This document shows, piece by piece, positions 1,750 to 28,161 of a stretch of DNA of 64,000 nt (the stretch's first letter is position 1; each line of letters starts with the position of its first letter). Origin of the DNA: Cyanophora paradoxa CCMP329 (lineage: Eukaryota > Plantae > Glaucophyta); assembly GCA_004431415.1 (NCBI GenBank), contig QPMI01000445.1, positions 1 to 64,000 of the forward strand. Direction: 5' to 3'. The notes beneath the pieces were generated by a model. That model had not been told where the DNA came from and ran no database searches. It saw nothing but the letters and a program-made list of their open reading frames with translations. Both the position numbers and the translations under genes were made by a program.

Positions 1750-1822
1750 ACACATATGAATATTCATATTTTAATCCCTCGGCGTTCCGCCTCAGGATTA
1801 AAATATGAATATTCATATGTGT
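1750..1822. repeat. Terminal 73-bp hairpin (perfect 28-bp arms, 17-nt loop), mirrored at 28089-28161
   Basis: ACACATATGAATATTCATATTTTAATCC (1750-1777) pairs with GGATTAAAATATGAATATTCATATGTGT (1795-1822). Confidence 0.95.
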
Positions 1823-2565
1823 GATTCGATGTTATATCAATAAAATCGATTAATTTATTTGAATTTTCACATGAATTTTCATATTTGTAAATGCATTTTC
1901 AATTAATTTAATCGATGTTATATCGATAAACTCGATTAATCGATATTGTATCTTAATTGTAGTTAATCGGAATTATATCAATAACTTCGATTGATCTTAA
2001 TTGAATCCTAAATGAATCTAATCGGAATTATATCAATAAATTCGATTAAATCATGTTCTTTTCCGATTAAATCAAATAAATATTTAACTTTGTTATCATA
2101 AGTGGTCTAAGTTGACTCACTTTTCATAAACATTTTGAACTCTTAGTCTCTTTGAATTTCTTAAGATGACTCAACTTAGTCAACTTAGTCAACTTTGTTA
2201 CCATAATCAATCAGGGTGGACTCACTTTTAGATCAACTTTGAAATTTCAAGCAAAATCAACTTGGATTTCAAAAGTGGATCTTCTAAGTGGACTCAAAAT
2301 GTTCACTTTGTGATACATGTTAGCTCAAATCCTTACTGTTTATGGTCAGGGTTGACTAAGTGGGGGAGTTGACACATTTTTTCAAATCCTTTTTAGAAAA
2401 CTTTAGGTCCCAAATATTTCCTGTGAAATTTGAGTCAACTCAACCCACTTAGTCAACCCTCCCATTGAATTCGTAACAAAATCCATATACTTTTACTACT
2501 TTTACGATTAATATGAGTCAACCTTGAGTCCACTTAAATATAAATATAATATAATAGGGGGAATC
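1750..2565 (+). repeat. Left terminal inverted repeat (816 bp)
   Basis: Reverse complement of 27345-28161. The only difference I noticed is G5 (2362-2366) versus C6 (27544-27549). Confidence 0.96.
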
Positions 2566-2859
2566 TAGGGCAGATGCTTAGAAACATATGAATTATTGAG
2601 CCTATGATACTTACATAGTCACGCTGGTCTCGTTGAGAGGATTCCGAATCTGTTTTTATCTTTGTGAGATGATGAGTTGGTGAAGAGATACATGCTTTTT
2701 AGTGTTTTGTATGGGAGTTTTCGATATGACGTCATCATGACGTTGCATATGTATATGATATATATGACACACGGGCGGACTCGGGAGATTATGACGATCA
2801 CGGCGATGTGTTAATTGTCATATTGTTTATGTATATATGTTTGGCGCAATCTGATTGGT

Positions 2860-3422
2860 GTGCTTGAAACCACATAATTCGTGCTTTAAACCACATAATT
2901 CGTGCTTTAAACCACATAATTCGTGCTTGAAATCACTTATTAAAAAATAATTCGTGCTTGAAATCACTAATTAAAAGATAATTCGTGCTTGAAATCACTT
3001 ATTAAAAGATAATTCGTGCTTGAAATACTTATTGAAAGATAATTCGTGCTTGAAATCACTAATTGAAAGATAATTCGTGCTTGAAATCACTAATTGAAAG
3101 ATAATTCGTGCTTGAAATCACTAATTGAAAGATAATTCGTGCTTGAAATCACTAATTAAGAGATAATTCGTGCTTGAAATCACTAATTGAAAGATAATTC
3201 GTGCTTGAAATCACTTATTAAGAGATAATTCGTGCTTGAAACCACTGATTAAAAGATAATTCGTGCCTAAAACCACTAATTAAAAGATAATTCGTGCTTG
3301 AAATCACTAATTGAAAGATAATTCGTGCTTGAAATCACTAATTGATAGATAATTCGTGCTTGAAACCACTGATTAAAAGATAATTCGTGCCTGAAACCAC
3401 TAATTAAAAGATAATTCGTGCT
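2860..3422. repeat. Tandem array: 3 x 21-bp units then ~16 x 31-bp units (GTGCTTGAAATCACTAATTGAAAGATAATTC)
   Basis: Near-identical head-to-tail units read directly; no unique spacers. Confidence 0.95.
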
Positions 3423-3424
3423 AA

Positions 3425-3524
3425 ATGAAATCGATTACATGATATCGATTACATGAAATCGATTACGTACATGAAATCGATTGCATGAAATCGATTACAT
3501 GAAATCGATTACATGAAATCGATT
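3425..3524. repeat. ~7 x 14-bp tandem repeat ATGAAATCGATTAC
   Basis: Read directly; contains the palindromic core AATCGATT. Confidence 0.9.
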
Positions 3525-3748
3525 TCCATAAAGAATAAAACATTTCGCCGAAGTTTCGCCGAAGTTTCGGTTTTTCGATTGTCGGCATCTTCAAACGCTT
3601 GTATCTCATCACCAGATAGTCAACTTGCAGCGTTCTGCATAGCATTGTGAAGCGCTTGATACGATCTACAAGACTATGTGTATATCATATGCATATATGT
3701 ATATCACACATACATATATTTGGAAAAAACGAGTTTTCGGCTATGAAA

Positions 3749-5132
3749 CTAGCTAGTTTTGGTCCTTTCTCTTAGTGTTCTTTGAGGTTTAGGGGCTGTA
3801 TATGACTCCTTAGTAGTCTGAAAGTCATTATACCATCTCTGGCTATTCACTTCTGAAAGTTTCTGTGTCCCTGCTATAGTGAGCTTTTTGAGTTCCCTGC
3901 TAACTTTTCCAGCCTTCTCCTTCCTAGCCTCTATCAAAGGCTTATCTGGGACTTCATTAGCAGCTTCTATGCCTTCTCTCCTTATAGCAGCATCAACCCT
4001 AGCTTCCTCCTTGGCTTGCTCTAAGGCATCCACTGTAGGGGTTTCTAGATATTCAACTGCATTCACAGGCAACAGCTCATGGAAAGCAAACCTGTTTTCT
4101 ATGATCTCACCATTGGGACTCCTTAGCTTAAACTTAAAGCCTTCCCTACTATCAACTGTGTAAACCATCCTAGACCAATTGTTACCCTGTTTAGCAAAGG
4201 GTTCTTCTCAACTTTCACTCTAACAAACATGCCAGGCTGCATGGTATCAAGGTAAGCTATTGATTTCTTGAATCTCTCATCTTCTAATCCCACTATATAC
4301 CTATAATGCTCCTCTGTAGTTTCGCCTGGCTTCATCTTAGTAGCTGAGTGAACTGTATTATTGTAATTATACTCAATATCACCTAACACATCAAAGAATC
4401 TAGCTGTGTTATTAGCTATGCAATAGTTTGTGATCAGTCTCTTAATCTGCTTGTTAAAGGCTTCAATTCGACCTTGGCTTCTATGGTCAGCAGTTCCACT
4501 CACTTGGTGTTCTATGAATTTACTAGATAAATATTCCTGGAATATTCGATTTTGGAACTCACTCCCAGCATCTGATTGAACCTTTACTATGGGTCTTGCT
4601 ACTCTCATCTCAAGCTGTTTAAATGCAGCCAATGTAGTGAGAGCTGATTTATCCCTTATAGGTATGATATACCCAGTTCTCAGTGTTGATTCCATTGCAG
4701 TCATAAATGTATCATAGCCATTGTTTTGTTTCTTATAAGCTGGGAAAAAGAGCAAATCAATCACATAGGTATCAAGGGTTGCCTAATTGGGACCATGGGA
4801 TCTCTCTTCCTAGATATAGCAGGTGCATTGATCTGAACTACCTCTTGTTTTTTATAGAACTCTTGCAACTGCTTATAGGATTCATCTGGTAACTCAGCCC
4901 TCATAGCTTGAAGCCCTTTGTAACCAGTTCTCACATCATAGAATCTCTTGGCAATCTTGCTGGTTTCTTTCACTGCAATAGCAACTGGGATCTCTACTGG
5001 GACAAGCTCTTTCATCTCAGACTTTTTAACAATTCGAGATTCCCCTTTTTCCTCCTTTGGAATTGTGATAGGCAACAGGTTACCTTGCAGTTGCTCAGTG
5101 GTTCTTCTAACTATTCTTCCAGTTGCTGGCAT
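3749..5132 (-). CDS. Retroviral-like (rve) DDE integrase, split into 3 ORFs by two single-base homopolymer deletions
   Basis: Catalytic motifs VIDL, VQSDAGSEF and GRIEAFNK, plus YNNTVHSATKMKP. Adding 1 nt at ~4777 and ~4197 restores QPLDTYVIDL and NPFAKQGNNWSRMVY. Confidence 0.92.
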
Positions 5133-5135
5133 CTC

Positions 5136-8100
5136 TTAATTAAAAGGAACAGAATTAATACCATCTGGTAAGATGTATCTCTTTGCATCAAAGCAGTTTA
5201 GGGCAACCCTTCTACTCACAGTATCTATTATTGTGTGATCTGCCCTTCTCTTCTGCTTTGCAGTCACAGTCTTGCTGATACCTGCAAATAAACACTCCTT
5301 AAAATCATTAAATTGGAGTTCCTCAGTTGAAGTCCCAGAGAGCTTACTCCTCTCAATCTCAGCAGTTCTGAAACTGTAAACTTTGGCTCTGAGACCCACA
5401 TACTCCAATATAGCAGAACCTGGCATCTCATTTTTGTATTTACCTGGGTCATTCTGGAATCACCTCCAAGGTCTAATGCATAGGATATATTCTCTATATC
5501 TTTTTGTAAGGTCTTAGATTCAATATATAGACAGAAGGAGTCAGTATCATGGAATAGTAACTTTGCTTTTGTCCATTGGGACCTTACAGTATCATAGAAG
5601 AACTGGTAATTATGCAGTTTGGCTGCATCCAAAACATAAGCCCCAATTGCAACAGGCTTATCTAGTTTCACATGCTTTGTGTAAAACTCAAAAGCAACTG
5701 CTTTTTCGTTTATGGGACTTGTTGATTTCACCAATGGGGAAGCTGCATATTTCATAAATAGCTTCTCAGTATTAGCAATCTTTACCACAGATCTACCTCT
5801 ACATGATTCAATGCATTTCCCATAGATTGAATTATTCATCAGTTTATAGAAATCAGCCTCGAATTTATTCACTGCTTTCCTTCTCATCTCAGTGTTCAGC
5901 TCAATATAAGATTTCATTACAGGAGCCACAGTAAATGATAGGACCCTGTGAATTTTCTTTAATTTCACCCCTTTGTCCAACAGATACTGTAGGAGAGGCT
6001 CAGAAATCACATAGTTTGCCACAGAACCAAAGGTTGCAGTTAGCTTAGGGGTCTTATCAAGCTCTTCTCCTGAAAGATCCAACAGGCTCTTTTGATATTG
6101 TGATAATTCCGCATATTCTACTATTTTCTTGTTAATAATTAGGGGGAAATCACTGTGGTCTAGATATAGCCTTATTGGGTATTCCAGATCAACTTCCAGG
6201 AAACTGGATCTGTTATCTTGTGGGTTGAATTCGGTCTCCCATCTAAAATCACCAACTGGAATTGGCTGACTCAAACAGTAGCCATACAAGTTGTTAGCAT
6301 CAAACAGCATTATATGGGAGTTCTCACCATCAGCCTCAGCATACCTACAAGGCATTGTTGCAAAGCCACCCCTGATTCCCCTCTCAACAAATTCGTATTG
6401 CTCTACATCACTTATAAGCTCTATTTTTGCCTTGGTGGTCCTAAGCATAGCATCCCAAGATAACCCAGGTGCAGATACATAATGAACTGGGTCCAATCCA
6501 TATACTGAGTGTGAAAGCCTTCTAAAAGCCTGGAATTTGTTCATTAACTCATCTACATCAGCAGCTCCAAAATCCATGAAATTGCTTGCATCAATGAACT
6601 TGTAAAGACCCCATTGCAATGACAGGTATTGATCAAAGTTTTTCGAAAGGATTTCGATTCGCTTTTTATCACCCATGCCTGCTATTTTTCTGAAAATGAA
6701 TGTCCCACAGTCATCCATTTGGTCAACAACAACTGCAACTTTGGTTTGCTTTGAGATTCTCCTATGGAGATTGCAGTTTCTGCATGCAGGAGCAATATAA
6801 TGACCTGTGTGGTGATCATGATCCCTGCATTTGAAGTTTTCTTTAGTGAACCTCTCACTGCAAAGGTAACAGTGTTTAGTAGCCCTGTAAACAGCCTTTT
6901 GCTCATCTGTGAGTTCATTCATGGGAATATTGGTAAACAGGAAGTCAATTAGCTCTCTTGCTTTGGATTCCAAGCATTCAAACAGACCTCCCATTGGATC
7001 CTGACCCTCAAATCGAAAATCTTGAACATCTGCCCCAGTGACTATTCTAATGTTGACTGCTGAGACTTCCCTCTTGGATTTCGATGCATCTATGGGGATG
7101 CTTCTATGTTCAATCTTGCAGTAAACCACAACAGGAAGCCAAACAGTTTTCCTGAGGTTTTTCAGTCCAAACTCTATGGTGGTCTCAGGTTTTGGTGTGA
7201 TTCCCTTTGAGAGTCTCCAATCAATGCATCTGTTTGAGTCCACATGAGCAGTGAGTTTAGCCTCAGACCTGAATCGAGATAAGCATGTGTCACAGTAGTG
7301 TAACTTCTGATCATTGTATGTTTCATGGTTTACTTTCAATAGCCTTGAAAGGGACATGATTGTAATATAGTGACCATTCCCTTCATCATCAAATATCAGC
7401 ATGAGATTAACCTTATGCTTTCTGCCTGGGTTACTTGATTGATGCAGGGGATAAATAACCTCTCCATCGATTCCAAATATATTAATGCTAATGCCTGCAT
7501 TTTGAGCCTCGAATTTATCAATAATATCAGCATCACAGGCAACAGGGAATGGGATGTTATCGAAATTGAGAGCCAGCGGATTATAAGCGATTGCTGAGTA
7601 TTTCCATTTGCGATATTGTGAAAGCTCATTCCTCTTATGGGAGTTTATCGCTTTTCTGTGAATATATGCCAAAATTGCATTTTCGAAGCAGGAATCATCA
7701 ATATTTCGAATATTTACTGTGGCTCTCTTCCTAGCAATCCACTCTGGGGTTTGTAGAAAGCATCCACCAGTTGGAGCATAACTCATAATAGCCACTCTGA
7801 GTATTTCAATTCTTTCTAAGCGATAGCTATCAACCACATTCATCTGCTCCTGACACATTTGGGCTGCTTTATTCAGCTCAGTTCGAATATTTCTCGACCT
7901 GGTTAATACAAAGTAATCACTGTAAATGTATTTCGATATCCAAACCTGTGGATTGCTCACTTTAACGAACTTGCAGATAAAAGACAAGCGAACCTTGATT
8001 GCCCTGAATTGATCTAAACCCTGCTTTAATCGATTTGGAAGGGATGTAGCAATTCTATCCAGGAATTCAATCACATCTACAACAACTTCCCTTCTGGCTC

Positions 8101-8380
8101 TGTATGTGAGCCAGCGATATAATTCATTCATGGCTGTTCCATCTTCTGCCTCTGGTTCTATTTGCCTAAGCCTATCCAGTTCATCCAAGGTTTCAATTTT
8201 ATCATATAGGTTATTTGCTTTTCTGGTTAATCTGCTTAAAGTGGGTCTGCCCCTTGCAATTAAATCTATTTCCCGGTCATATTCAGCCTCTGTAATTTCA
8301 TGGGCTGCATAAAGTGTTCCCAGCAATCCCATGAGTTCCCATTTCTTCTCCCTTATGAGTTTGTTGGTAATTCGGGGCAT
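5136..8380 (-). CDS. Protein-primed family B DNA polymerase (N-terminal OTU-like protease motifs, C2H2 finger, EndoVII insert), one frameshift near 5447
   Basis: Polymerase motifs DANNLYG, KLMNNSIYGK and HDTDS. EndoVII-type CYLC...DHDHHTG...ACRNCN. DDSCF...GHY. Adding 1 nt restores TPGKYKNEMPG. Confidence 0.93.
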
Positions 8381-8440
8381 TATTCCTAACTTGTTCCTAT
8401 TCTAAGGGGATATTTTATTTTAGGATGTTCTAAACGCAAT

Positions 8441-8791
8441 TTAAAATGTTTTAATGGATCCATTGGCTTCCTCTGAATGAAATCGCAAAAACCTATTAAT
8501 CCTAAATCGAGATTTCGGTTTTTGTAGATTGACTATCCAAGGTTCAAACAAATACATGTAATATGCTTCTCTGTTCATAAGGTCTTCATGCCCACCCTTC
8601 TTAGTTGAATAAAGGACTGAAAACCTCACATCAGAAGCCTTGCATAGGTCTGCTGTTGATGGCATTTGACCTGATTTGTGTTGTTTCCATCGGATATGTA
8701 GTTTTTGTGAGGTTCTCCCTATATAAACTTTATTCAATTCTTCACTCTCAATCATATAGATCGATCCAGAATCATGATCTGTTCCAGCCAT
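8441..8791 (-). CDS. GIY-YIG endonuclease
   Basis: GSIYMI...KVYIGRT...RWKQH...REAYY...N. Confidence 0.88.
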   Translation of the reverse strand: MAGTDHDSGSIYMIESEELNKVYIGRTSQKLHIRWKQHKSGQMPSTADLCKASDVRFSVLYSTKKGGHEDLMNREAYYMYLFEPWIVNLQKPKSRFRINRFLRFHSEEANGSIKTF

Positions 8792-8842
8792 TTCTTACTA
8801 CTTACATATAAATATATTTTTCTATCTCTTAAATCATTTTTT

Positions 8843-8948
8843 GGTTGACTTAGTGGGTGGAGTTGAGGCACTTTTTATTTCTTTTTAGGGCAGAGTCCTT
8901 TTTTAGAATCTGTGAAAAAATGAGTCAACTCCCCCCACTTAGTCAACC
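8843..8948. promoter_or_regulatory. Internal copy of a TIR sub-element (24-bp inverted-repeat pair), putative origin or protein-binding site
   Basis: GGTTGACTTAGTGGGTGGAGTTGA...TCAACTCCCCCCACTTAGTCAACC matches 2350-2458 and its mirror near 27452-27561. Confidence 0.7.
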
Positions 8949-9028
8949 TAATCGATAAATAAACCGTAAATAAAAGACTGTTTGGGTCTTTTATGATAAA
9001 TTTGAATCAACTGTGAGTCCACCTTTGA

Positions 9029-11628
9029 CTAAACTTCAACTTCAACATCTGAATCATAATCTGATGCATCAGGATCAGCAGCAGGTAGGTCTTGTTTCAT
9101 CCTTGGATTAGCTTCTTCCTCAATAGTTTCATCATCTACAAGTTTCATCTTTCTGAATTCCTCAAATACTTGTGGGAATAGGAAATGATAGTATTGTTTG
9201 CCATTTGTAGTTTTCACTTGGATATATGTCACACTTCTCATTTCAGTATAATACCTGCGACTATTATAATCGTTTTTATATTTATTGCTGGTAATGAACT
9301 CCTGGAACCATTTCCAGGTTTCCACAAGGCTACCAGACTTGCATTTATTCTCGGAAATTAAGCCTCGATCCACAAGCCACTTAGTGAACATAAGAATGAT
9401 TGGAGCGCACACCTGTTGGGCTAAATAGTATTTATTTGTAAGGGGTCTATCAGCAATCCAGTTCACATCCTCACAGTCAACTTTGGTTCTCAAATAGTGG
9501 GCAATGTTTCGAATATTGCAGTGATCATTTAGCCATTTTACAAGTGGAAGGAAGTATGACCTATCCTTTGCGAATTTCTTACTAACTTCAACAACCACAA
9601 ATCGCCTATCTCCAGCTTCAATTTTCACTGGAATGTTGTTATTGCTGGTGAATATAATCCTGGCAAAGTTGCTTTTTGTGTATGAATCTATCCCTTTGTG
9701 TTCAATTACAATCTTATCAGAAGTTATGAGATCTTTGAGCATATCATTATTTTCGAATGTGTCCTTGCCTGAGGCTTCATTCACAACAATCAAGATCTTA
9801 TCCTCTCTATTGTGGGCAAATCGACCAAACAGATCCTCTTTTGGCTTTCCAGTTGCATAACTTAGGGCATCTCCAAGTATCTTCTTTTGGAAAGTATCAA
9901 CCAACACATTTTTACCAGTTCCCTGCTCACCAATGAAGATTAAGGATACTCCATTGAGTTCCCCAGGCTTTTGCAGCATGTGGGCAAACCATTTCAACAG
10001 ATATTCATAGGTATTTTGATCCTCACCAGACATTAAGAACAAGTGATCTAGGAAAGGCTTAATCATCTCAGCAGTTACATCCTCTGGAGCATTTTCGAAT
10101 TGCTGATGGTCGACCTTCATTCCTGGATAGAGATTAAATACAGACTTGCATTTTGCACTGAGAGTAGCAGGAGGGGAAGGAAATCCATGTAAGTTGATCT
10201 TGTGGCTGTTGGATCCACAATCCATTTCCTAAATGATTGCTCCCATTTCTCTTTCTCATTATCTGTTCCCTCATTGACAATCACCTTATGCATCAAATGG
10301 GGGAAATGCTTTGTAGAGAGCTTCCCAATATCTTTGGGCATCCAGCAAAGTAGTTGTTCATCCCAGAGCATCACACAACCAACATTTTCAACATGATGCA
10401 TTCGAGCATTGAAATACCTCTTATGCACATTGTAATGTTCAGCCAAAGGAGGGATACTTGCAGTCTTGTAATCGATTTCATCTGTGTCCTCTGGTAGGAA
10501 TGCATACTTTTTGGGGAAGAGTTCCTTGAAAAGCTCATTGTTATCTTTGCTCAACCAATAAACCAAGGATTTGAAGGTCAACACTTTGCCAGGCTCAGCC
10601 TTCTTCTTGCTTCTGCGAAGCTGTGTAAACTTCTCCTGGCATTCATCATAATCATACTTGTCACTCTGTTCTGAGAATTGGTGGAAGAGTTCAGCTTGCA
10701 TTTTAGGGGTGAACTTGTTGTCTTCCCCAACATTGATGATGACCAGTCCTACATCAATCCAAGTTTTATACTCATTAGCTCTCTCACCATTCAGACCCAT
10801 TATAACACTTTGTAGCAGTTCGAAAGTAACAGGATTTTCGGGTTCAGTGTCTTTTTCAGCTTCTACCTTCTCAGTCTTCACTTTATCACTTTTTGGCTCC
10901 TTTTTAACTGGTTTTGGCTCAGGGCTATAATTTGCGAATGCAGAAATATTCGATTCATCCACAAGTTTAGTAGAAGCTGAGAAGAAAGATACAAAGAAGT
11001 CCTCATTTCGCATTAACACTTTGTCACAGTCAACGAATTTCTTAAAGCAAACGTTTTTATCAACATCTTTCTTTGATTTATTTTGAGCATCCAGAGTCTC
11101 ACCTTTGCAGCAATTGAGGCAGATAAGGTTCTGTGTGGAGCTGTAAACTCCACTGTCATAATCCTCATTTTTCACCAATCCCATAGCTTTGAAAAGCTTG
11201 GGGATATCTTCATGTTTGCATGCAAGCGATTTAATGATAAAGTGGGCTGAGATCTTGAACTTGGTGACATCCTCCTTGATCAAATAAACCCTTCTATGGC
11301 GAACTGCAACAGCAATATCGTTAATCGAAGTGGTCCCAGATCGCTTCCATAGCTTATCTCTCATCTCTCTTACAACAGTTTCAGCCTCAGCATAGTTTTC
11401 AGCAATGTTCTCCTTCAAATCAGCGAATTTATCCAGGTCCAGGTAAACTCTGGTGACTTGTTCAGGCTGAATGCATTCAGCCCAGGTCTTAACCTTGCTA
11501 TTATCAATGGCTTCAAGGGCATCTTCAGCAGAATCAAATACATGGGTGACCTTGTTGCGATCACCAATGAGAGTACTAAGGAATGTAGCATTTTCAACAG
11601 GGGTGGCGAATTTCTCGATTTTGTTCAT
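9029..11628 (-). CDS. AEP primase + PriCT-2 + D5-like SF3 helicase, one frameshift near 10175
   Basis: AEP motifs RVYLDLD, SAHFII and YDSGVYS. PriCT-2-like YKTWIDVG...FSEQSDKYD. Walker A GEQGTGKN, Walker B VVNEA, motif C FTSNN. Confidence 0.9.
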
Positions 11629-11845
11629 TTTCGATTTTGGGGACTTCTACCTTTAACGAAGAAAATAATTTCGGAAGGAGGAATTGTCTTTTATATATAT
11701 CCTATTATTTGCCAAGTCCTTAAGTAGTTTTGGGTCGGGATACTGTCTCGATATATAGGTACAGTTTTAAAAAAGAGGGAAGAAAGCTGTCATTTTTTTG
11801 CCTCCGATCAAATCGATTTCTACAAAATTTGTTTCGATCGAGAAT

Positions 11846-12172
11846 TTATTCTTCGATATATTTCCGAGGTCTTCCAACCGGTTTATGCTCTTTGGGTGTC
11901 TTGGGTAGTTCGTCTTTTTTCTTGTGGTAGTATTCCAGCGCTTTTGCCTTTTTTTGCTCGCGATATTCTTCATTTTCCCTGTATTTCCTCTGGTGTCTGA
12001 GGGCAATCTTTTTGAGTTCTTCTGGTGTGTGAACTGTAGCGGCTCCTTGGGATAATCGTTCCTGCTTCTTTTTATGATAGGCTTCGCGTTTTCTTTGGGC
12101 ATCTTGCTCCCTTTTCAGTCTCAGCTTCTCTGCTTTTTCATCATCTGTGAGTATCTTGCGGATATTCGGCAT
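11846..12172 (-). CDS. Small basic protein with C-terminal AT-hook (GRPRKY)
   Basis: K/R-rich; paralogous to 12325-12570. Confidence 0.75.
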   Translation of the reverse strand: MPNIRKILTDDEKAEKLRLKREQDAQRKREAYHKKKQERLSQGAATVHTPEELKKIALRHQRKYRENEEYREQKKAKALEYYHKKKDELPKTPKEHKPVGRPRKYIEE

Positions 12173-12324
12173 TTCTCTTTAATAGTAGATACGAAAATAA
12201 TTTTTCCTCAATACAATCTATCTACTTTTTCCTTAAGTCATTTTTTGTTGCGAACACCAGTTCCTGTCTGTAAACTTTTATAGCTGCCTCAGTGGCATAC
12301 TGAGACCGCTTTTTCTCAATTATC

Positions 12325-12570
12325 TTATAGACCTGGGGGTCCATTGCTACTATCAGTAGGCAAATAATATTTAATCGGTCTCCCTCTGGGTCTCTGCTCC
12401 TCTTTTTGGGCTTTTCTGCGATAATAGGATGCCAGGGCTTGCTGCTTTTTATACTCTCTATATGCTGGGTCCTCTCTATATCGTTTCTGCATTGCTAGAA
12501 TGTGTCTAATAGAACCCTCAGTAACAGGTTCATCACTGGTAAACTCGATTAAACTAATAGTGTCCTCCAT
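12325..12570 (-). CDS. Small basic protein with AT-hook (RGRPIKY)
   Basis: QKRYREDPAYREYKKQQALASYY aligns with QRKYRENEEYREQKKAKALEYY. Confidence 0.7.
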   Translation of the reverse strand: MEDTISLIEFTSDEPVTEGSIRHILAMQKRYREDPAYREYKKQQALASYYRRKAQKEEQRPRGRPIKYYLPTDSSNGPPGL

Positions 12571-12826: not shown

Positions 12827-12848
12827 GTCTCTAATAAAACAGAGAAAA

Positions 12849-13583: not shown

Positions 13584-13611
13584 TGTATCTTTATTAGAAT
13601 GAGAGATAATT

Positions 13612-15338: not shown

Positions 15339-15391
15339 TATATTCTCTTTTATTATACTGCAACATAAAAAATCTACCAATGATCCTTAAT

Positions 15392-16402: not shown

Positions 16403-16431
16403 TCTTCTTTTATCTATATTTATATATTAAA

Positions 16432-18953: not shown

Positions 18954-21900
18954 ATGAGCTTCAATTACCCACCAAATCTAGAAACCATTCAAGATGATAA
19001 TGCAAGCAGCACCAAGCATGTGAACTTTGATAATATTAAAGTAAAGGGTTCAGTTTCAATTGACCACAGCTCTGATAATTCATCAAAGACTCAATCAAGG
19101 GAGCATGCTTTATCTGTGAATCAAACCGATCCAGATAAAGAGGAGGTCAGTGTTGCTTTTAGTTTGGGTAATGTGAAAGCAAACCAAGTGGCAGAGATCA
19201 AAGCAACAAGAAGGAGACCTAGGAAACTAAAAACCAGTGGCACTCACCCAGATATACCTTCCAGGTTCGATAGTGGTCGATTGATTTTCAATGTTCAAGA
19301 TGAGCAGGGCAAACAGAACACAGCTTTGCGAATTTACAATGAGGGCAGCACTCCAAAAGCTGAGGTCCCCCAAGTATTGCAAGTGGGTCCCATTGCCAAT
19401 ACAAATCAGGTCTCCTACACAAATGATGTCTACCCTAAGGATATTACATATGACTTTGCAAGAAATGAGCCTTTTGGTTTCTTTACTCCAAAAGATGTCC
19501 ATCAAAAAAAGCCATCAATTACAATCAACAGTAGCCCCAGTCAACCAGTAGCAATCCATTTACATCCTGATTTAGTCGAAATGGATAGGCACCTTTTGCC
19601 TTTGTATAGCAATGTGAAAGACCTTGGAATTCGAACCAGGCAATGGCGAAATATCCATGGCAGTAATGTGTATGCAAATGGTGAGAAGCTTGTTAGTGAG
19701 AAAACCCTAAGAGAAATCATTGAGCATTATGGTCCCAATGGACCTACTGTCCCATTCCCTATTCCATTTCCCAATGGACCTCCCGATTTAACACCAAAGA
19801 AGCAGCCTGGAAGAGAATACACAGCAACTGAAGATGTAGCCTTTGGGCAGCACATTGTTAGTTGGGAGCAAGTTCGCAATAAACCTATAATTGAACCCAG
19901 AAAGCAAATAGATGAGCAGTATTTACCTCCTGAAATCGATATATTAGAGCTTGATGAATATCAATTCGTTCCAGATGAGGAAGAATATTTACCAGATGGT
20001 TTTGACCCACAAGAATATGAATACGATCAATATGATCCCAATGAGGAGGAGATACTACCAGATGGCTTAGATCCACAAGAGTTTGAGTATGAGCAGAACT
20101 ATGAACCTGATGAGGAGTATTTGCCAGATGGTCATGATCCACCAGCTGTTGACTATGAGCAACCTTATGAACCCCATGAGGAATTGTTACCAGATGGATT
20201 TCGACCTGAGATCTGGGAGTTCTTTCCTGATTATGAACAAATTAATAATAAACCTGCAAAGTATCCCCCAGAGGATCACAATCATGATTGGGATGAGATC
20301 TTAGGCAAACCTCAAAAGTATCCACCAGAGGATCACAGGCATGATTGGGGTGAAATTGATGGGATTCCAACTGAGTTCCCACCAAGCAAACATGAACACA
20401 CTTGGGATGAGATTAATGACCAACCAGAGTTTGCAAAAGTGGAGCCTTTGGCAACCCTAGGGGTTTCTCTTTACCAGACTTGTAATATCCCTGAAAGAAT
20501 CTTTTTGAATGAACACTATGTACATGTGAATGGGACACTTGCAAATTCAGCTATGAGAGGACCACTTCATATTAGGACATTACCAGGCTCTTATAATCCA
20601 CCACCTGAACCAGGAGCAACCATACCAAATATCTTTGTGTCAAGCTACATGGAGGCTGACATTCCCACAGATACATTCAGAGTCCCAACAGACCCAGCAA
20701 CCTACCAAAATTACAACTCTGCTATACAGGTTCATGTAGCAGATGTAAGCAGCTTAGATGGCTCAAGACCAATGATAGTTTTCAGTCGAGATAAGTATTC
20801 CTACATTCCCATAGTGGGAACTGCAAATGATAATTATGGAAGGGCAGAGCTTGCATGGATTAAAACAGATTATGGTGGGGTTCTGGAAGCCAATCAAAGA
20901 ATGGCTGCAAAAAACATACACAATGAGAGCATTTCGAGAGTAGTCACAGAGGATTACCTTCAAGCTCAGAACTACATAGATGAAACAGAACTAAATACAA
21001 TCATTGCAGGTATAGGTATTGGTGTTACAGGCAATTACCTCCCTCTCACAGGTGGGACTATTGATGGAACAGTAACAGCATGTAACTTCTTTGTCCATAC
21101 TGAAAGCAATCAAACCTTTCCTGTGGTTCATCCAGGAGGTGAGTATGAGATACCTGATGATCCAGCTATTATGCCCATTAAGATTGATCTCCCTTCTGAT
21201 TATGTAGGAAGGGGTGAACTAAAGACCATCTCTTTCACAGGAGATTATAATGATCTCATAAATAAACCTACTGCTGCAAATCTGCATCCTGTTGCATTTT
21301 CGGGTAGTTTCCTTGATCTAAATAATAGATCACACACCCACACAAAGGCAGAAATCACAGATTTTGCACACACTCACACCAAATCACAAATTACAGATTT
21401 TGCACACTTCCACACAAGAGCAGATATCACAAATTTCGCTCACACTCATGTTAAATCAGAGATATTAGATCTCGGAAATGTTGCATATGTGGGTCACACC
21501 CATACCAAGGCAGAGATTACAGATCTTGGAAATGTTGCATATGTTGGTCACACCCACACAAAGGCAGAGATTACAGATTTTGCACACACTCATGATTGGA
21601 ATACAGATATCTATAACAAACCTGCAATTTTCTCAGGAAACTACAATGATTTGACCAATAGACCAACTCTTGATCCTTTCACAGCCACCACAATCAGAGC
21701 CAACAACACAATGTATGTAGGATCAGGTCAGATTGTAGAACCAGCAGGACCTATGTTTGAAGAAACATGGTTCTTCCACAATTCGCAGAATTACTTTGAT
21801 AAAACCTTACTTGTTCGTGGAAATGCCTATGCAAGAAATTTCTATGCTATGAACCCCTCAAATAATGCGACCATCAGTCGATGTATTACAGAGGCAGATC

Positions 21901-22214
21901 TTTCCAGTCAACTCAATGCATATTTTAATGGGAAAATCCAAGCAGGAACGTATGTTTACACTACTCCTTATCTTTGGGCAAATCCTGACCATAGGTTTAA
22001 CCTCACTATTAATTTCAACAGCAGCTTTGCTAACCCTCCTATTGTAACAACTGGTATACAACACAATGAGACAGCCTACTACTATCGAATGTATGTTAGG
22101 CTTAAACAAGTTTACAGTAGCTATTTCACTTGTGAGCTTGACATAGTTCCATTAAGTTCTTTTGACAGACCAGGATTTCCAGTTACAATTCATTACATTG
22201 CTGTCGCAATTTAA
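18954..22214 (+). CDS. Large phage-tail-fibre-like virion protein (1086 aa)
   Basis: Acidic EEYLPDG repeats; PPEDHxHDW and HTHTKAEITD repeats; FSGxYNDLxNKP motifs; lectin-like C-terminus (INFNSSFANPPIV). Confidence 0.8.
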   Translation: MSFNYPPNLETIQDDNASSTKHVNFDNIKVKGSVSIDHSSDNSSKTQSREHALSVNQTDPDKEEVSVAFSLGNVKANQVAEIKATRRRPRKLKTSGTHPDIPSRFDSGRLIFNVQDEQGKQNTALRIYNEGSTPKAEVPQVLQVGPIANTNQVSYTNDVYPKDITYDFARNEPFGFFTPKDVHQKKPSITINSSPSQPVAIHLHPDLVEMDRHLLPLYSNVKDLGIRTRQWRNIHGSNVYANGEKLVSEKTLREIIEHYGPNGPTVPFPIPFPNGPPDLTPKKQPGREYTATEDVAFGQHIVSWEQVRNKPIIEPRKQIDEQYLPPEIDILELDEYQFVPDEEEYLPDGFDPQEYEYDQYDPNEEEILPDGLDPQEFEYEQNYEPDEEYLPDGHDPPAVDYEQPYEPHEELLPDGFRPEIWEFFPDYEQINNKPAKYPPEDHNHDWDEILGKPQKYPPEDHRHDWGEIDGIPTEFPPSKHEHTWDEINDQPEFAKVEPLATLGVSLYQTCNIPERIFLNEHYVHVNGTLANSAMRGPLHIRTLPGSYNPPPEPGATIPNIFVSSYMEADIPTDTFRVPTDPATYQNYNSAIQVHVADVSSLDGSRPMIVFSRDKYSYIPIVGTANDNYGRAELAWIKTDYGGVLEANQRMAAKNIHNESISRVVTEDYLQAQNYIDETELNTIIAGIGIGVTGNYLPLTGGTIDGTVTACNFFVHTESNQTFPVVHPGGEYEIPDDPAIMPIKIDLPSDYVGRGELKTISFTGDYNDLINKPTAANLHPVAFSGSFLDLNNRSHTHTKAEITDFAHTHTKSQITDFAHFHTRADITNFAHTHVKSEILDLGNVAYVGHTHTKAEITDLGNVAYVGHTHTKAEITDFAHTHDWNTDIYNKPAIFSGNYNDLTNRPTLDPFTATTIRANNTMYVGSGQIVEPAGPMFEETWFFHNSQNYFDKTLLVRGNAYARNFYAMNPSNNATISRCITEADLSSQLNAYFNGKIQAGTYVYTTPYLWANPDHRFNLTINFNSSFANPPIVTTGIQHNETAYYYRMYVRLKQVYSSYFTCELDIVPLSSFDRPGFPVTIHYIAVAI

Positions 22215-22233: not shown

Positions 22234-23304
22234 ATGACCTCTCTATTAGAAATCCCAAACTATGAACTTGCAGCCAAATCACTCCACAGCACCTCTCATG
22301 AAGTAGTCGACTCTACACCCGGTTTTATTTGCACTGAAACTTCAAGTAATACCTCTTTCACAGAGAATAATATACTCAGAGTCAAAGAAATTCGATGTGA
22401 TCGAAATGGAGGCAAGATAAGAACCACAGGAATTATTATCTCGAATAAAAATCAAGTTCAAGCAGGTCAAGTAGTCCCAGATTCAGCAGTGTATGATAAT
22501 GTGGGTGGATTCACCACAGCAAAGATAGTAACTTTCGATAACACAATAAATAATTCGGCTCTTGTTGTCAAGAGTGGAGGAGCATACATTGGAGATGGGG
22601 CAAATGTTGCAGGGACTGTAACAGCGAATCAATTAAATGTGAATGGGACAAGTTCATTTACAGGATTGATGACCTTCAATGGTGGACTCTTGGGAAATGT
22701 TAGCGTTGAAACTCGAAAAGCTACAACAAGAGTTAATGCACCTGAGATGGATAATGGGACAGATGCAAATGTGAATTATAAACGAAACGGAAATACCATT
22801 TTCACTCTCGAAAAGACAATAACAGATCTGAAAGCAATCACAATCCCGGAAAATAGTGGTCTGAAACGATCCTATTGTCCAAGAATGAATATATCAAGAC
22901 AAGCTCCTGGTTTGACAGGGTCCATAATACTTACAGCTGGAACACCCTTTAACTTTATAAATGGAGCTTATCTTGTAAACAATGAAGGAAACTTTTCATC
23001 CACAAAATTTACAGCTCCTGTTTCCGGAGTATATAGGGTGTTCTTTGCATGTATGAGAGCTGGCACAACCTCTTATACTCATATTGCTACCAGCATTTAT
23101 TTAAATGGAAATCCTACAACCATCCAAACAAGGGTTTCAATGCCGTCCGCAGGGATTTCTAATACATTTGTAACTCCAATTTCATATGAAATTTTACTTT
23201 CTGTTATTGAAGGTGACTCCTTTGATATACGCAATTCTTCTGGAGCCAGTCTTCAATTTGATATCAGATACTATTTTTCTTGTTATCTTGTTACTGCTAC
23301 ATAA
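22234..23304 (+). CDS. Fibre/spike paralogue 1 with C-terminal C1q-like domain
   Basis: Shared N-terminal domain; KFTAPVSGVYRVFF C1q signature. Confidence 0.8.
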   Translation: MTSLLEIPNYELAAKSLHSTSHEVVDSTPGFICTETSSNTSFTENNILRVKEIRCDRNGGKIRTTGIIISNKNQVQAGQVVPDSAVYDNVGGFTTAKIVTFDNTINNSALVVKSGGAYIGDGANVAGTVTANQLNVNGTSSFTGLMTFNGGLLGNVSVETRKATTRVNAPEMDNGTDANVNYKRNGNTIFTLEKTITDLKAITIPENSGLKRSYCPRMNISRQAPGLTGSIILTAGTPFNFINGAYLVNNEGNFSSTKFTAPVSGVYRVFFACMRAGTTSYTHIATSIYLNGNPTTIQTRVSMPSAGISNTFVTPISYEILLSVIEGDSFDIRNSSGASLQFDIRYYFSCYLVTAT

Positions 23305-23326
23305 TATTATCTGTATAATATAAAGA

Positions 23327-24348
23327 ATGTCCACACAAATAGCAGTTCCTGTTTTCTGTTATGCCGCCCCAAAAATACATCAACTGAACCATACAGTAAC
23401 AGATGCAACACCTGGGTTTATTTGCACAGAAACAACAGGGGCTGATTCGTTTTCACAAAATTCTGTGATTAGATGCAAAGAAATTCGATGTGATCGCAAT
23501 GGGGGAAAAATTAGAACCACAGGACTCATTGTATCTAACAAGAACCAAGTCCAATCAGGTCAAATTGTTTCAGATACAGCAATTTATGACAATGTGGGAG
23601 GGTTCACCACACCCAAAATAGTTACTTTTGATAATACAATTAATAATGCTGCTCTTTCAGTTAGAAGTGGAGGGGCATATATTGGAGATGGGGCAAGGAT
23701 TGATGGAACTCTAACAGCCAATCAAGTAAACATTACAGGAACAAGCACATTTACAGGTTCAGTAACAGCCAATGGAGGCATAAGTATTCCAGAAACAACA
23801 CAATCGATAATAACAGCAACTTCCAAGGTGGTCACACCTGAAATCGATACAGGAGCAAATGTGAATCTTGTTTTGAAACGCAACAGTGATATTATGGCTA
23901 CTCTGGAAGCCAATCGCTTGACAATCAACACAAATTGTTATTTAAAATATGACTATCAGCCTCGATTTTCTGTTCAACTTAATTATCCTCATGTTGCTAC
24001 CAGTGAAACTGCTCTTATCAATTGGGGAGTAGTGTTTGTGAATAATAGGGGGCATTCAATGTCAGTAATGGAAGGTTCACTGCTCCTGTTGCAGGTCATT
24101 ACAGATTTACAGCATATACCCATTCAACTTCAAGTAGTCCAATAAGTCTCTCTTTAAAAGTAAATGACCAAGACCCAGGGGGTCAAAGTATCATAACACA
24201 AAATGACTCAACTCTTACGAATAAACCGCTTTACATTAGTGTAATTCTTAACATTGCTATGGGTGAGTATATAACACTTGTAACAAATAATGGGGGTAGC
24301 TACACAAATCGAACAACATTCACAGGTGAACTTTTGAGTGTCACATAA
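23327..24348 (+). CDS. Fibre/spike paralogue 2 with C1q-like domain (frameshift in the G-run at 24048-24052)
   Basis: Adding 1 G gives NNRGAFNVSNGRFTAPVAGHYRF...FTGELLSVT*. Confidence 0.8.
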
Positions 24349-24370
24349 ATTTTCTCTTTATAAAGTAGGA

Positions 24371-24637
24371 ATGTCGAATATCTACCAAGTAGTTCTCTCA
24401 GATACTGAGAAGCTGGGAATGGAATTCTGTGCAGCTTCTGTTCAGGATTGGATTGATAATGTGGTTCATAACAGGGCAAGAATTGCAATTGATGATATTG
24501 TTCAGAAAGAGATCCAGTCTTGCATTGCATCAGGAATTCAAATACCAACCTCAAAGGAAGCCATCGTTTTACAGGCATTCCAAAGGGGAACTGTAAAGAA
24601 AGGTATCGAATATAATTATGTCACAGAAGAACAATGA
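24371..24637 (+). CDS. Small protein resembling those found after C1q fibre genes in marine tailed phages
   Basis: The pattern LSDTEK..AASVQDWIDNVVHNRARIAIDDIV is recognised from memory of cyanophage hypothetical proteins; not searched. Confidence 0.65.
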   Translation: MSNIYQVVLSDTEKLGMEFCAASVQDWIDNVVHNRARIAIDDIVQKEIQSCIASGIQIPTSKEAIVLQAFQRGTVKKGIEYNYVTEEQ

Positions 24638-24672
24638 ACATTATTTTTCTTTCCTTCTTAGTAAAAGAAGCA

Positions 24673-25518
24673 ATGGGTGAATATAATCGAGTTCAACTGC
24701 CTATATATTCCCTTGGATCCCCTGCAATGCATTTTCGCCAGCATGAAGTAAATGATGAGGTTCGTGGTTTAGAATCCACAGAGAGACCCAATTCCAATGG
24801 CAACTCCTTTGATAAAAATTCGATTATTCGAGTTAAAGAGCTGAGAGCTGATAAGAATTCTGGTGTGGTTAAAACAACTCGACTTCTTGTCACAAATGCT
24901 AATTTTTTCCAGCCTACCAATGGAGGTCCTGATGCTTACAGTGTTGATCTGAAAGCCCTTGATTTCGATAAGAATTCTGCTGCTGTTACTGTGAGATCAG
25001 GAGGAGCATTTATTGGGGGTGGCTGTCGAATTTCAGGTCAGCTTTCATCCTCAATTTCGTATAATGATGTCCCAGATACTCTAGAGCAAAATGTAGAAGA
25101 CCCCCAACGAATTCGATTATATACTCCTGTTGCACAGCAGCCATTAATTCAATTTTACATTGGATATACTGTTACTCTTGAAAACTCGGAATTAATTGAA
25201 GGAACCAAAAGAGTACTGAGAGGTCTTGCGATTCCATCTGCAATGCTTTCCCTTTGTAGAGCCAACAACAATCAAGTAGGTCATAGATACTATTTCAATG
25301 TTCAGGGATATAATCATTTCGGTTATGGCTACTGTGTTTATAATAATAATTTCACCTTTGACTTGTTTGTTACTGATATTGGGTTATATACTATAACTCT
25401 TATCGGTTTGAGAACAGATATAGCCGCTGTATCAGCTCTTAGAGGTGTAACTCCTGATACTCTTTCAGTTACAGGGTTTTACATGGAGCCAGATGTAATT
25501 GATGACCCAACCCCATAA
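24673..25518 (+). CDS. Fibre/spike paralogue 3
   Basis: Shared N-terminal R.KELR.DKN.G.VKTT and SGGAFIG; distinct C-terminus. Confidence 0.75.
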   Translation: MGEYNRVQLPIYSLGSPAMHFRQHEVNDEVRGLESTERPNSNGNSFDKNSIIRVKELRADKNSGVVKTTRLLVTNANFFQPTNGGPDAYSVDLKALDFDKNSAAVTVRSGGAFIGGGCRISGQLSSSISYNDVPDTLEQNVEDPQRIRLYTPVAQQPLIQFYIGYTVTLENSELIEGTKRVLRGLAIPSAMLSLCRANNNQVGHRYYFNVQGYNHFGYGYCVYNNNFTFDLFVTDIGLYTITLIGLRTDIAAVSALRGVTPDTLSVTGFYMEPDVIDDPTP

Positions 25519-25541
25519 AAGATATATCCCTTTAATGTAAA

Positions 25542-26375
25542 ATGGCTGAGCAACCCCAACTTGAACGAATTATTACACCTCAACTATCATTAGCTGCCCC
25601 AGCAAACCATGTTTTACAGCATGCTACCTTTGATGATGTAGAGGGTCTCCAATCCACAGAGGTCCAACCTACAATGAACACCTTTGGTTCCACCCACAAA
25701 CTGAGATTACAGGAACTCAGATGTGATAAAAATAATGGAATAGTTAAGACAACTAAGCTACTTGTCACAAATGCAAACTTTTCTGCTCATTATGGAGACC
25801 CAGATAGCTATGGAGATCCTCTGTCTACTTATTCTTTTGAATCTAGGTCGGGAGCTATTAACTGCAAATCGGGGGGAGCATATATTGGGGATGGTCTTAG
25901 GGTTGGTGGGGCTGTTGGAGCGCCTTTATTTGTGAATGATCAACCCAATCCCATTGATCCCAACACAAGAATTCGAACCTATGTCCCCAGCATGAATGCC
26001 CCCTATATAATAAAAATATTCCCCATTGTTGTAAATGAACAAACAGCAGTAGTAGACTCTCTTGTTGAAATTGGTGACCACTACAAGGTAGTTGTGGATA
26101 TCCCACCAGATGTTTATGCTCTTTGTCAAGTAGAGGGTGGAACTCCTAATTTTGCTGTTGTGATCACCCCATATGATAATTTCGGAATTGCTTATCATGG
26201 AGTCAATTTTGGTTTGGAAGATTATCAGTTTCTGGTTAGAGCCACCAAGTTTGGTATCTACAAGTGTGTATTATATGCTGAGAGAACCGATTTTATTGCA
26301 AAGCAGAATACCTATGCTGAATACTATGGGACAAATCGATATTTCCCCATTTTTGGGCAGGATACTGCTCCATAA
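25542..26375 (+). CDS. Fibre/spike paralogue 4
   Basis: LQELRCDKNNGIVKTT and SGGAYIGDG; distinct C-terminus. Confidence 0.75.
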   Translation: MAEQPQLERIITPQLSLAAPANHVLQHATFDDVEGLQSTEVQPTMNTFGSTHKLRLQELRCDKNNGIVKTTKLLVTNANFSAHYGDPDSYGDPLSTYSFESRSGAINCKSGGAYIGDGLRVGGAVGAPLFVNDQPNPIDPNTRIRTYVPSMNAPYIIKIFPIVVNEQTAVVDSLVEIGDHYKVVVDIPPDVYALCQVEGGTPNFAVVITPYDNFGIAYHGVNFGLEDYQFLVRATKFGIYKCVLYAERTDFIAKQNTYAEYYGTNRYFPIFGQDTAP

Positions 26376-26397
26376 GAATATTGGTTATATATAGAGT

Positions 26398-26670
26398 ATG
26401 GATAGTAAAACAAAAAAGTTTATTGATGCTGCTATGACAGTTCATGGTAAAGATAAATTCGATTACAGTGAGACACATTACATCAAAGCTCAAGAGAAAG
26501 TATCTGTGAGATGTTTGCAGTGTAACAAGGTGATCCTTACATATCCCTTTAATCATGTGAAGGGATCAGGTTGTAGGGAATGCAACAAAAAGCATTCTCA
26601 GGCTTACAGGAAAAGGGCTACTTCATCAATCAAAGTAGAGTACAGGGATATTTGCATTAGGTTCGATTAG
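26398..26670 (+). CDS. Small zinc-ribbon protein (DUF723-like single repeat)
   Basis: FIDAAMTVHGKDKFDYS..CLQC..H.KGSGCREC. Confidence 0.7.
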   Translation: MDSKTKKFIDAAMTVHGKDKFDYSETHYIKAQEKVSVRCLQCNKVILTYPFNHVKGSGCRECNKKHSQAYRKRATSSIKVEYRDICIRFD

Positions 26671-26699
26671 GATTAATTAATTTTTCTAAGGTATTCTTA

Positions 26700-27098
26700 A
26701 TGGAGACTAAATACAGAGGCTTTCATGTAATGCTTGATTACAAGGCTAAAACAGCTATAGCAACAGGTTATGAGCATGTTAGCTTTCTTGGTAATTGGAT
26801 TATGAGAACCCTTGAACAAGCAGTATTGAGACAAGGTATTAGGATTGTTCATAAGCATTGTGAGATATTTGATGGCAAACTATCACCTCCTGGTTTTGCA
26901 TTGGTTCTGCTATTAGATGAAAGCCATTGCACAGCTCATTGTTATTCCAATGAAGGCATGTTAGCAATTGATATATTCAGTTGTGGTAAAGAAGCTCAGC
27001 ATAAAACACAAGCAGTTGCAGATGAGATCGATAAAACAATGAATTTCTTAACATTTGAGAAGACTGAGAGACATAAACATGATAGATTCCCGTTTTGA
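26700..27098 (+). CDS. speD: Pyruvoyl-dependent S-adenosylmethionine decarboxylase family (class 1B) proenzyme
   Basis: GFHVMLDY..PPG..LLLDESHCTAHCY..AIDIFSCG, with the ESH autocleavage site. Confidence 0.85.
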   Translation: METKYRGFHVMLDYKAKTAIATGYEHVSFLGNWIMRTLEQAVLRQGIRIVHKHCEIFDGKLSPPGFALVLLLDESHCTAHCYSNEGMLAIDIFSCGKEAQHKTQAVADEIDKTMNFLTFEKTERHKHDRFPF

Positions 27099-27344
27099 TG
27101 GGTTTCTATAATGATAAACAGGGTAATTTACCTTTTTTATTACAATGGCAATCGTTAAAAAAGGATATAATATATCCTTTCCTACAATAGCTTTCTACAA
27201 TGATTTTCTTTCTACAGTAGCTTTTGTTACAATAGAATTCTACTGTATGATGTAGCCGAAATATGAATGCACCCTACATTAAGCAATGTCAAGTATTTCG
27301 AATACTATTCGATTTCCTTACAATAACACTCAGCATCTCCCCTT

Positions 27345-28161
27345 GATTCCCCCTATTATATTATATTTATATTTAAGTGGACTCAAGGTTGACTCATATT
27401 AATCGTAAAAGTAGTAAAAGTATATGGATTTTGTTACGAATTCAATGGGAGGGTTGACTAAGTGGGTTGAGTTGACTCAAATTTCACAGGAAATATTTGG
27501 GACCTAAAGTTTTCTAAAAAGGATTTGAAAAAATGTGTCAACTCCCCCCACTTAGTCAACCCTGACCATAAACAGTAAGGATTTGAGCTAACATGTATCA
27601 CAAAGTGAACATTTTGAGTCCACTTAGAAGATCCACTTTTGAAATCCAAGTTGATTTTGCTTGAAATTTCAAAGTTGATCTAAAAGTGAGTCCACCCTGA
27701 TTGATTATGGTAACAAAGTTGACTAAGTTGACTAAGTTGAGTCATCTTAAGAAATTCAAAGAGACTAAGAGTTCAAAATGTTTATGAAAAGTGAGTCAAC
27801 TTAGACCACTTATGATAACAAAGTTAAATATTTATTTGATTTAATCGGAAAAGAACATGATTTAATCGAATTTATTGATATAATTCCGATTAGATTCATT
27901 TAGGATTCAATTAAGATCAATCGAAGTTATTGATATAATTCCGATTAACTACAATTAAGATACAATATCGATTAATCGAGTTTATCGATATAACATCGAT
28001 TAAATTAATTGAAAATGCATTTACAAATATGAAAATTCATGTGAAAATTCAAATAAATTAATCGATTTTATTGATATAACATCGAATCACACATATGAAT
28101 ATTCATATTTTAATCCTGAGGCGGAACGCCGAGGGATTAAAATATGAATATTCATATGTGT
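27345..28161 (-). repeat. Right terminal inverted repeat (817 bp)
   Basis: Mirror of 1750-2565; ends ...CATATGTGT, followed by the TSD GGCGCA. Confidence 0.96.

Follow-up and report, generated by a model that had tools for sequence, protein, structure and literature searches.

Elements of the Polinton-like virus (PLV) type have been recorded before in the glaucophyte Cyanophora paradoxa. For this species, Table S4 of Bellas et al. 2023 (PMC10120064) lists 366 major capsid protein (MCP) genes in 2 MCP groups (272 + 94), given as 'new' clusters from iterative hidden Markov model searches, for a density of 3.66 MCP genes per Mbp and an estimate of 7.32 Mbp (7.3% of the genome). The accessible main text of that paper contains 0 mentions of Cyanophora, and its figure-type supplement gives locus ids only. 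The available part of Starrett et al. 2021 (PMC8502044) notes, in data from C. paradoxa, contigs with adinto-like PolB and integrase, and the accessible sections of Bulzu et al. 2025 (PMC12220804) place the sole PTR-PTR-H_lectin fibre of that data set in a C. paradoxa PLV and report discoidin-patatin fusions in PLVs of Glaucocystophyceae. Here we describe an element at positions 1750-28161 of a 64,000-nucleotide window, which is the whole stretch of DNA analysed (positions 1 to 64,000 of the forward strand of contig QPMI01000445.1, assembly GCA_004431415.1, C. paradoxa CCMP329). We hold with good confidence that it is an endogenous PLV copy of C. paradoxa, one that an rve-type integrase probably inserted not long ago and that, in its assembled form, is probably unable to build its own capsid. 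It probably belongs to a known PLV family that has expanded greatly, as a copy that was inserted recently and is defective.

The element is 26,412 bp long and has a GC content of 0.386 (about 0.39), versus 0.545 in the left flank and 0.716 in the right flank. Copies of the target-site duplication (TSD) GGCGCA lie directly outside its left and right ends (1744-1749 and 28162-28167), and its terminal inverted repeats (TIRs; 1750-2581 and 27329-28161) are ~820 nt in length. When the two arms are aligned, the sole difference up to position 2565 is a 1-nt indel in a G-run at 2361 (G5 versus G6), and the match decays beyond that point. A repeat finder reports inverted repeats of 100% identity at 1745-2366/27545-28166 and of 99% at 2362-2581/27329-27548; it extends the arms by 5 nt because the GCGC core of the TSD is palindromic. 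The termini read ACACATATG...CATATGTGT, and both ends are self-complementary fold-backs, with terminal palindromes at 1750-1822 (1750-1784/1788-1822) and 28088-28162. The left arm also holds 55-nt sub-repeats at 1918-2049. Since the TIRs differ by one indel and the TSD is intact, the integration looks recent. A preliminary description of this DNA had given the same ends, near-identical TIRs and 6-bp TSD and had proposed a recent insertion; the boundaries are correct, far beyond chance, and the insertion does appear recent.

That description had also called the element full-length, which does not hold in the sense of an intact genome, because the MCP open reading frame (ORF) is ~160 aa short and the integrase (twice), pPolB, primase-helicase and second fibre gene are frameshifted. 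The MCP gene (14460-15338, minus strand) encodes 292 aa and carries an in-frame internal deletion, with its junction at 14986-14991. In the MCP alignment, columns 119-278 (~160 residues) are missing from the window protein, between YGSYTY and HIPSLDIG. Contigs from sequencing runs X1, X2 and X11 depart from the window sequence at precisely two points, 14986 and 14991, and their loose ends, translated by hand (..HIPSDFLAHFPL.. and ..IEKVKTTGMA-IPSLDIG..), match full-length MCP homologues, which indicates that sister copies carry the missing segment. The deletion amounts to ~480 bp, is bounded by 6-nt microhomology, and joins two IPS-coding microhomologies. With about one third of the capsid gene gone, this copy probably cannot build particles alone.

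The five frame breaks lie near 4775 and 4198 in the integrase, near 5445 in pPolB, near 10174 in the primase-helicase and near 24045 in fibre 2. Our comparison with contigs of the family took in four of these sites, 4198, 4775, 5445 and 10174. At each of them, family contigs of high depth are longer by a single base (+G behind 4198, 4775 and 5445; +T behind 10174), and +G is found in the family contigs at two further places, 2361 (left TIR) and 11638. In the window, every +G site is a G-run, and the one-base differences to the contigs comprise five shortened G-runs and a sixth that falls inside a G-run. These differences may be real slippage mutations or long-read consensus errors.

The element does not stand alone in the genome: the sequencing contigs show a high-copy family. 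In contigs of four DNA runs, the depth of the element is roughly 10-200x that of the flank, and its coverage is rich in variants. Left-flank depth is 73, 206 and 104 in X1, X2 and X11, versus 1,260-23,900 when contig depth is summed over element bins, a sum that does not equal a copy number. Contig pieces with 90-100% likeness to the window number 7,823, 2,365 and 3,256 in these three runs, and at a likeness of at least 97%, single contigs over the integrase/pPolB region reach depths of 2,000-8,000. Because the depth of element contigs is so far above that of the flank, a single-copy insertion is excluded. A contig that spans the junction between flank and element (1000-1778) is present in X1, X2 and X11. 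Differences in depth between gene blocks, such as the lower summed depth at 8337-12338, were not used for ranking. Between the left TIR and the integrase are non-coding tandem-repeat arrays with 21-, 31- and 14-nt units (2860-3569). Family contigs jump ~750-770 nt across them (joints 2807>3575 and 2824>3577), and array length therefore seems variable among copies.

A further run, X15, which may be of RNA, yielded 12 contigs touching 10 of the 30 bins, and is not taken as evidence of transcription. In one X15 contig, the inner TIR (2415-2580) is joined to the patatin gene (17181-17865) via 316 other letters. This joint from 2580 to 17181 indicates that the family includes a member of different architecture that is much shorter.

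A search with the MCP among 1.84 billion representatives returned five hits, of which two are credible homologues. One, of 456 aa, shows 64% identity (64-65%) with E 2.8e-110, and the other, of 431 aa, shows 38% identity. The remaining hits, rejected as homologues, are two bacterial Ig-repeat proteins and a Logan protein with E 2.3e-4 over a best stretch of 28 residues. The 456-aa homologue is EukProt EP00741_Cyanophora_paradoxa_P015758, and its atlas neighbours are viral clusters with Capsid_N or Capsid_NCLDV in 12-18% of their members. The same protein appears as gene_47449 in Table S2 of PMC10120064, where it is entered as a double-jelly-roll MCP with an HHpred probability of 98.47 for an iridovirus MCP, together with a 465-aa paralogue, and the best HHpred matches of the MCP relatives in that table are capsids of nucleocytoplasmic large DNA viruses (NCLDV). 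By eye, the window MCP is closest to the listed 465-aa MCP, in which the stretches 'PSDFLAHFPL' and 'IEKVKTTGIAIP' of the family contigs are found too.

At 64-65% identity to the listed gene_47449, the window MCP falls within the clustering threshold of PMC10120064 (25% identity over 30% length). The elements tabulated there for C. paradoxa and the one described here thus share this level of MCP identity and occurrence as a high-copy family in a GC-rich host, whereas the window copy differs in its MCP deletion and frame breaks. Moreover, the element carries exactly both of the architectures cited in PMC12220804, the PTR/H_lectin fibre and the patatin-discoidin fusion. It is therefore likely that the family is already catalogued in C. 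paradoxa and is not a newly seen lineage. The earlier proposal of an uncharacterised PLV lineage survives in one respect, in that a gene-by-gene description is lacking in the accessible parts of PMC10120064, but the MCP cluster is catalogued and the architectures are cited in PMC12220804. As a discovery the element adds little, the family and its scale in C. paradoxa being already in published tables.

The gene content of the element was assessed with a Pfam scan of 25 ORFs, 12 of which matched a family at E<=0.01. DNA_pol_B_2, GIY-YIG, DUF5906, PriCT_2, Pox_A32, Patatin, F5_F8_type_C, PTR and AdoMet_dc are above curated cut-offs, and three matches are below them: rve (4123-4704), H_lectin and an Endonuclease VII-like insert in pPolB. 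The preliminary gene list, with pPolB, an rve integrase, a superfamily 3 (SF3) helicase, a lipase, a fibre cassette and a metabolic gene, is largely right; an archaeo-eukaryotic primase (AEP) domain as such was not detected.

Genes for replication and integration lie in the left part of the element, on the minus strand. The rve-type (DDE) integrase (3749-5132) is split into three ORF pieces by the two frame changes, and scores 20 bits with Pfam rve (cut-off 32.6), 1.7e-10 with a PHROG transposase and 1.6e-10, below cut-off, with NCBIfam IS481. The adjacent pPolB gene (5136-8380) has a main ORF at 5264-8380 and a C-terminal 96 aa in another frame. Its DNA_pol_B_2 match (E 3e-14, 53.2 bits versus a cut-off of 25.8) is a feature of Polintons/Mavericks, and the motifs KxxxNSxYG and DTDS are readable in the ORF. 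The pPolB-integrase module occurs in the same order, at 34-38% identity, in four metagenomic viral contigs of IMG/VR (15-20 kb), loci that were found by the pPolB query only. In these contigs pPolB is followed by the integrase and there is a weak ATPase match, with no detectable MCP relative.

Upstream of pPolB are a GIY-YIG endonuclease of 116 aa (8441-8791, minus strand), above its Pfam cut-off, and a primase-helicase in two overlapping ORFs (9029-11628, minus strand). The first of these ORFs (9029-10225) matches DUF5906, a P4-type SF3 helicase, and the second (10117-11628) matches PriCT_2; PHROGs and NCBIfam concur in recognizing a P4-type primase C-terminal helicase. The gene had been described as an AEP primase-SF3 helicase, of which the SF3 and PriCT_2 parts are confirmed. 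No AEP domain was detected by Pfam, NCBIfam or PDB sequence matches to the 503-aa ORF, and its residues 1-270 match no family at E<=10. We infer a putative N-terminal AEP domain only from the PriCT_2 context and from DLD and SAH motifs recognized by eye. The presence of both pPolB and a primase-helicase in one element is one of the less ordinary points of this gene set.

The packaging ATPase (13612-14394, minus strand) is of the A32/FtsK type, matching Pox_A32 with E 5.5e-14 (52.7 bits versus a cut-off of 22.8) and terminase-like ATPases in PHROGs and NCBIfam, and is a feature expected of PLVs. Two penton-like proteins, which the preliminary description had called pentons, are plausible but weakly supported. 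For the first (336 aa; 15392-16402, minus strand), a homologue search returned none, and the feature-level neighbours are viral clusters, one of them with DUF5901. The second (310 aa; 16432-17364, plus strand) has two Logan homologues and a DUF5901 match with E 0.012. Its AlphaFold2 model is of low confidence (pLDDT 50.7), and in a Foldseek search of BFVD this model gave 30 hits at E<=1e-3, with TM-scores of just 0.23-0.35. Mavirus, Qinghai Lake virophage and klosneuviruses are represented among these hits by minor capsid proteins, and a DUF5901 protein is also among them. A literature search for 'DUF5901' found no paper.

Searches with the capsid module beyond these relatives were negative. 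The MCP had no match in the PDB by sequence or profile search, the MCP and its alignment had no relative in IMG/VR, the MCP alignment had none in a JGI metagenome scan, and the ATPase and the penton alignment had none in IMG/VR. Likewise, no peptidase family was matched in the 25 ORFs (E<=0.01) or in 12 proteins, 10 of them from the element, at E<=10. The only unassigned ORF of more than 150 aa (12849-13583, minus strand, 244 aa) matches no family, contains no cysteine and so is not a cysteine protease. These results bear out the earlier statement that there is no recognizable adenoviral-type maturation protease. Virophages (Maveriviricetes) are recognized by a virophage-type MCP together with a cysteine protease; here no protease was found, and the reported best matches of the MCP relatives are to NCLDV, not to Sputnik.

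The lipase and the fibre cassette of the earlier gene list are both present. The lipase gene (17354-18910, minus strand) encodes a fusion of a patatin-like phospholipase with a discoidin (F5/8 type C) domain, with matches to Patatin and F5_F8_type_C. It is followed by a large fibre of 1086 aa (18954-22214, plus strand), which consists of phage-tail-repeat (PTR) units and a C-terminal H-type lectin, and by four paralogous fibre genes (22234-26375, plus strand) at 22234-23304, 23327-~24348, 24634-25518 and 25542-26375, the second of which holds the frameshift. The four paralogues have in common an N-terminal domain of ~130 aa and differ in their C-terminal heads; together with the gene for the 1086-aa PTR/H-lectin protein, they make up a genuine cassette of five fibre genes. 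The top NCBIfam match of the patatin domain is a model for a cGAMP-activated phospholipase of CBASS (cyclic-oligonucleotide-based anti-phage signalling system), at 8.8e-36 and below cut-off. This match probably reflects general patatin likeness.

The metabolic gene of the preliminary description corresponds to a homologue, of 132 aa, of class-1b S-adenosylmethionine decarboxylase (AdoMetDC) (26700-27098, plus strand), which adjoins the right TIR and keeps the ESH self-cleavage motif. Its Pfam AdoMet_dc match is above cut-off, it matches the Thermotoga maritima AdoMetDC 1vr7 (E 3e-5), and its match to TIGR03330 (7.9e-12) is below cut-off; PHROGs and NCBIfam likewise point to S-adenosylmethionine decarboxylase. 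According to the accessible text of Li et al. 2023 (PMC9992855), phages and Algavirales carry class-1b AdoMetDC/SpeD genes, and the viral homologues include decarboxylases of arginine or ornithine. The substrate of the 132-aa protein may thus be AdoMet, arginine or ornithine. Like the proteins of phages and Algavirales, it is a small pyruvoyl-type proenzyme with an ESH site, but here it is borne by a PLV. Our literature searches turned up no link between AdoMetDC and Polintons or PLVs, and in the accessible text of PMC9992855 'polinton' occurs 0 times and 'virophage' once. The AdoMetDC homologue is unusual for a PLV.

In common with Polintons/Mavericks sensu stricto, the element has pPolB beside an rve-type integrase, long TIRs together with a 6-bp TSD, an A32 ATPase, an MCP and a penton-like protein. 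It differs in having no detected adenain-type protease, an extra primase-helicase, reported MCP matches to NCLDV, and termini of the form 5'-ACAC...GTGT-3'. With the algal PLVs described from cryptophytes in the available part of PMC12220804, it shares a size in the range of 14-40 kb, TIRs, a strong GC contrast with the host, primase-superfamily 3 helicase replicases, homing endonucleases and phage-like fibres. However, primase-helicase fusions are treated there as substitutes for pPolB, whereas both are present here.

The gene families suggest how such an element may propagate. A linear double-stranded DNA genome would be replicated by protein priming from the TIRs, with the added primase-helicase taking part, and the A32 ATPase would package the DNA into a double-jelly-roll capsid with pentons. 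Exchangeable fibres would attach to the host, and the patatin lipase may act at membranes in entry or exit. The DDE integrase would then insert the DNA in a cut-and-paste-like manner, leaving 6-bp duplications. For the copy in the window, mobilisation or packaging would fall to intact sister copies, should it occur at all, and its capsid too would have to come from them.

Several observations weigh against a defective PLV copy within an expanded family. For the 456-aa MCP homologue, a 3-row alignment gave an AlphaFold2 model with a pLDDT of 36, too poor to serve as structural proof of a double-jelly-roll fold. No virions, free genomes or environmental MCP relatives were found in IMG/VR or the metagenome scan, and the depth from which the family's expansion is read is not a copy number. 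As for the lesions, no bridging short-read contig confirms the MCP deletion, and, of the five frame breaks in coding sequence, four shorten a G/C-run by one base or fall within such a run. Like the difference between the TIR arms, these breaks fit long-read consensus errors as well as real mutations. Among the contigs listed, which drop rare variants, the window's own alleles at 4198, 4775 and 5445 are neither confirmed nor excluded.

At one extreme, the element would be an intact, competent provirus able to produce virus, and every lesion, the MCP deletion among them, would be an artefact of assembling repeat-rich DNA from long reads. The bias of the one-base differences toward G-runs, shared by the TIR arms, is what this explanation would lead one to expect, as is the longer allele in all of the high-depth contigs listed, and the TIRs and TSD are pristine. 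However, a ~480-bp deletion with 6-nt microhomology is atypical for a consensus error, and the deleted form is in frame in the assembly, so we regard this explanation as improbable. The opposite extreme, a pure Polinton/Maverick transposon with no virion stage, spreading by pPolB and integrase while its capsid genes decay as relics, appears equally improbable. It accounts for the adjacent pPolB and rve genes, the 6-bp TSD, the gene order shared with the four IMG/VR contigs and the loss of MCP sequence from the window copy. Nevertheless, the MCP is full-length in other copies, as seen in the contig loose ends and in the 456- and 465-aa genes tabulated in PMC10120064, and five fibre genes with divergent heads, the lipase and the packaging ATPase are kept as long ORFs. 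Such retention is hard to explain without an extracellular stage.

Somewhat better placed than either, although still unlikely, is a virophage-like satellite that lies dormant until it is reactivated by an infecting giant virus, and so protects its host, in the way demonstrated for mavirus in Cafeteria. For PLVs or endogenous viral elements in general, such a role is put forward in the available parts of PMC12220804 and PMC10945749. The NCLDV capsids that head the HHpred matches of the MCP in the PMC10120064 table would accord with it, as would a high-copy family for which IMG/VR and the scanned metagenomes give no hint of free virus. On the other hand, the element encodes its own polymerase, primase-helicase and integrase, and upstream of 21 genes no motif resembling giant-virus promoters stood out, only AT-rich TATAAA-like words (8 of 21). 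A defective PLV copy in an expanded family remains the explanation that we prefer.

If this is correct, the element is a worked example of pristine TIRs and an intact TSD that do not imply an intact provirus. Their coexistence with a capsid-gene deletion points either to trans-mobilisation within the expanded family or to very recent decay. The less ordinary features of the element are pPolB alongside a primase-helicase, a cassette of four to five fibre genes whose heads are swapped, and an AdoMetDC homologue. They bear on the exchange of replication modules among PLVs and on whether small eukaryotic viruses manipulate polyamines too. A bolder reading, which we put forward only tentatively and consider doubtful, is that the family is a glaucophyte virus lineage that is still live, with a replication region of recombinant make-up, in which GIY-YIG and primase-helicase stand beside pPolB-integrase and the border is marked by an internal palindromic module, and with the first polyamine auxiliary-metabolism gene reported in a PLV.

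This palindromic module consists of two inverted 25-nt arms, GGTTGACTAAGTGGG..GAGTTGAC, ~60 nt apart. Each TIR has one copy near its inner end (2350-2458 on the left, 27452-27561 on the right), and a third lies between the stop of the primase-helicase and the start of the GIY-YIG gene (8843-8948), which is the border of the block formed by those two genes. The 25-nt inverted pair has 5 matches versus 0 expected by chance. The module could be a scar left by recombination, or it could act as a terminator or bind a protein.

Other small ORFs complete the element. Three of 108, 81 and 90 aa lie at 11846-12826 on the minus strand, with an AT_hook match of E 0.021, below cut-off. Two basic ORFs in this group, at 11846-12172 and 12325-12570, share AT-hook-like tails of the form GRP(R/I)KY, and are possibly paralogous DNA-binding or core proteins, as judged from these tails. 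An ORF of 88 aa (24371-24637, plus strand) lies within the fibre region, and a 90-aa zinc-finger protein with an HNH-endonuclease-associated domain, recognized in PHROGs/NCBIfam, is encoded at 26398-26670 on the plus strand.

Scans of the window for tRNAs and Rfam families found none. In the host flanks, none of 12 ORFs matched Pfam, including the six longest of the 30-44 kb region. The right-hand host DNA in that region has a GC content of 0.73-0.81 and long ORFs in all six frames. A tandem array with 42-nt units is found there at 38347-38578.

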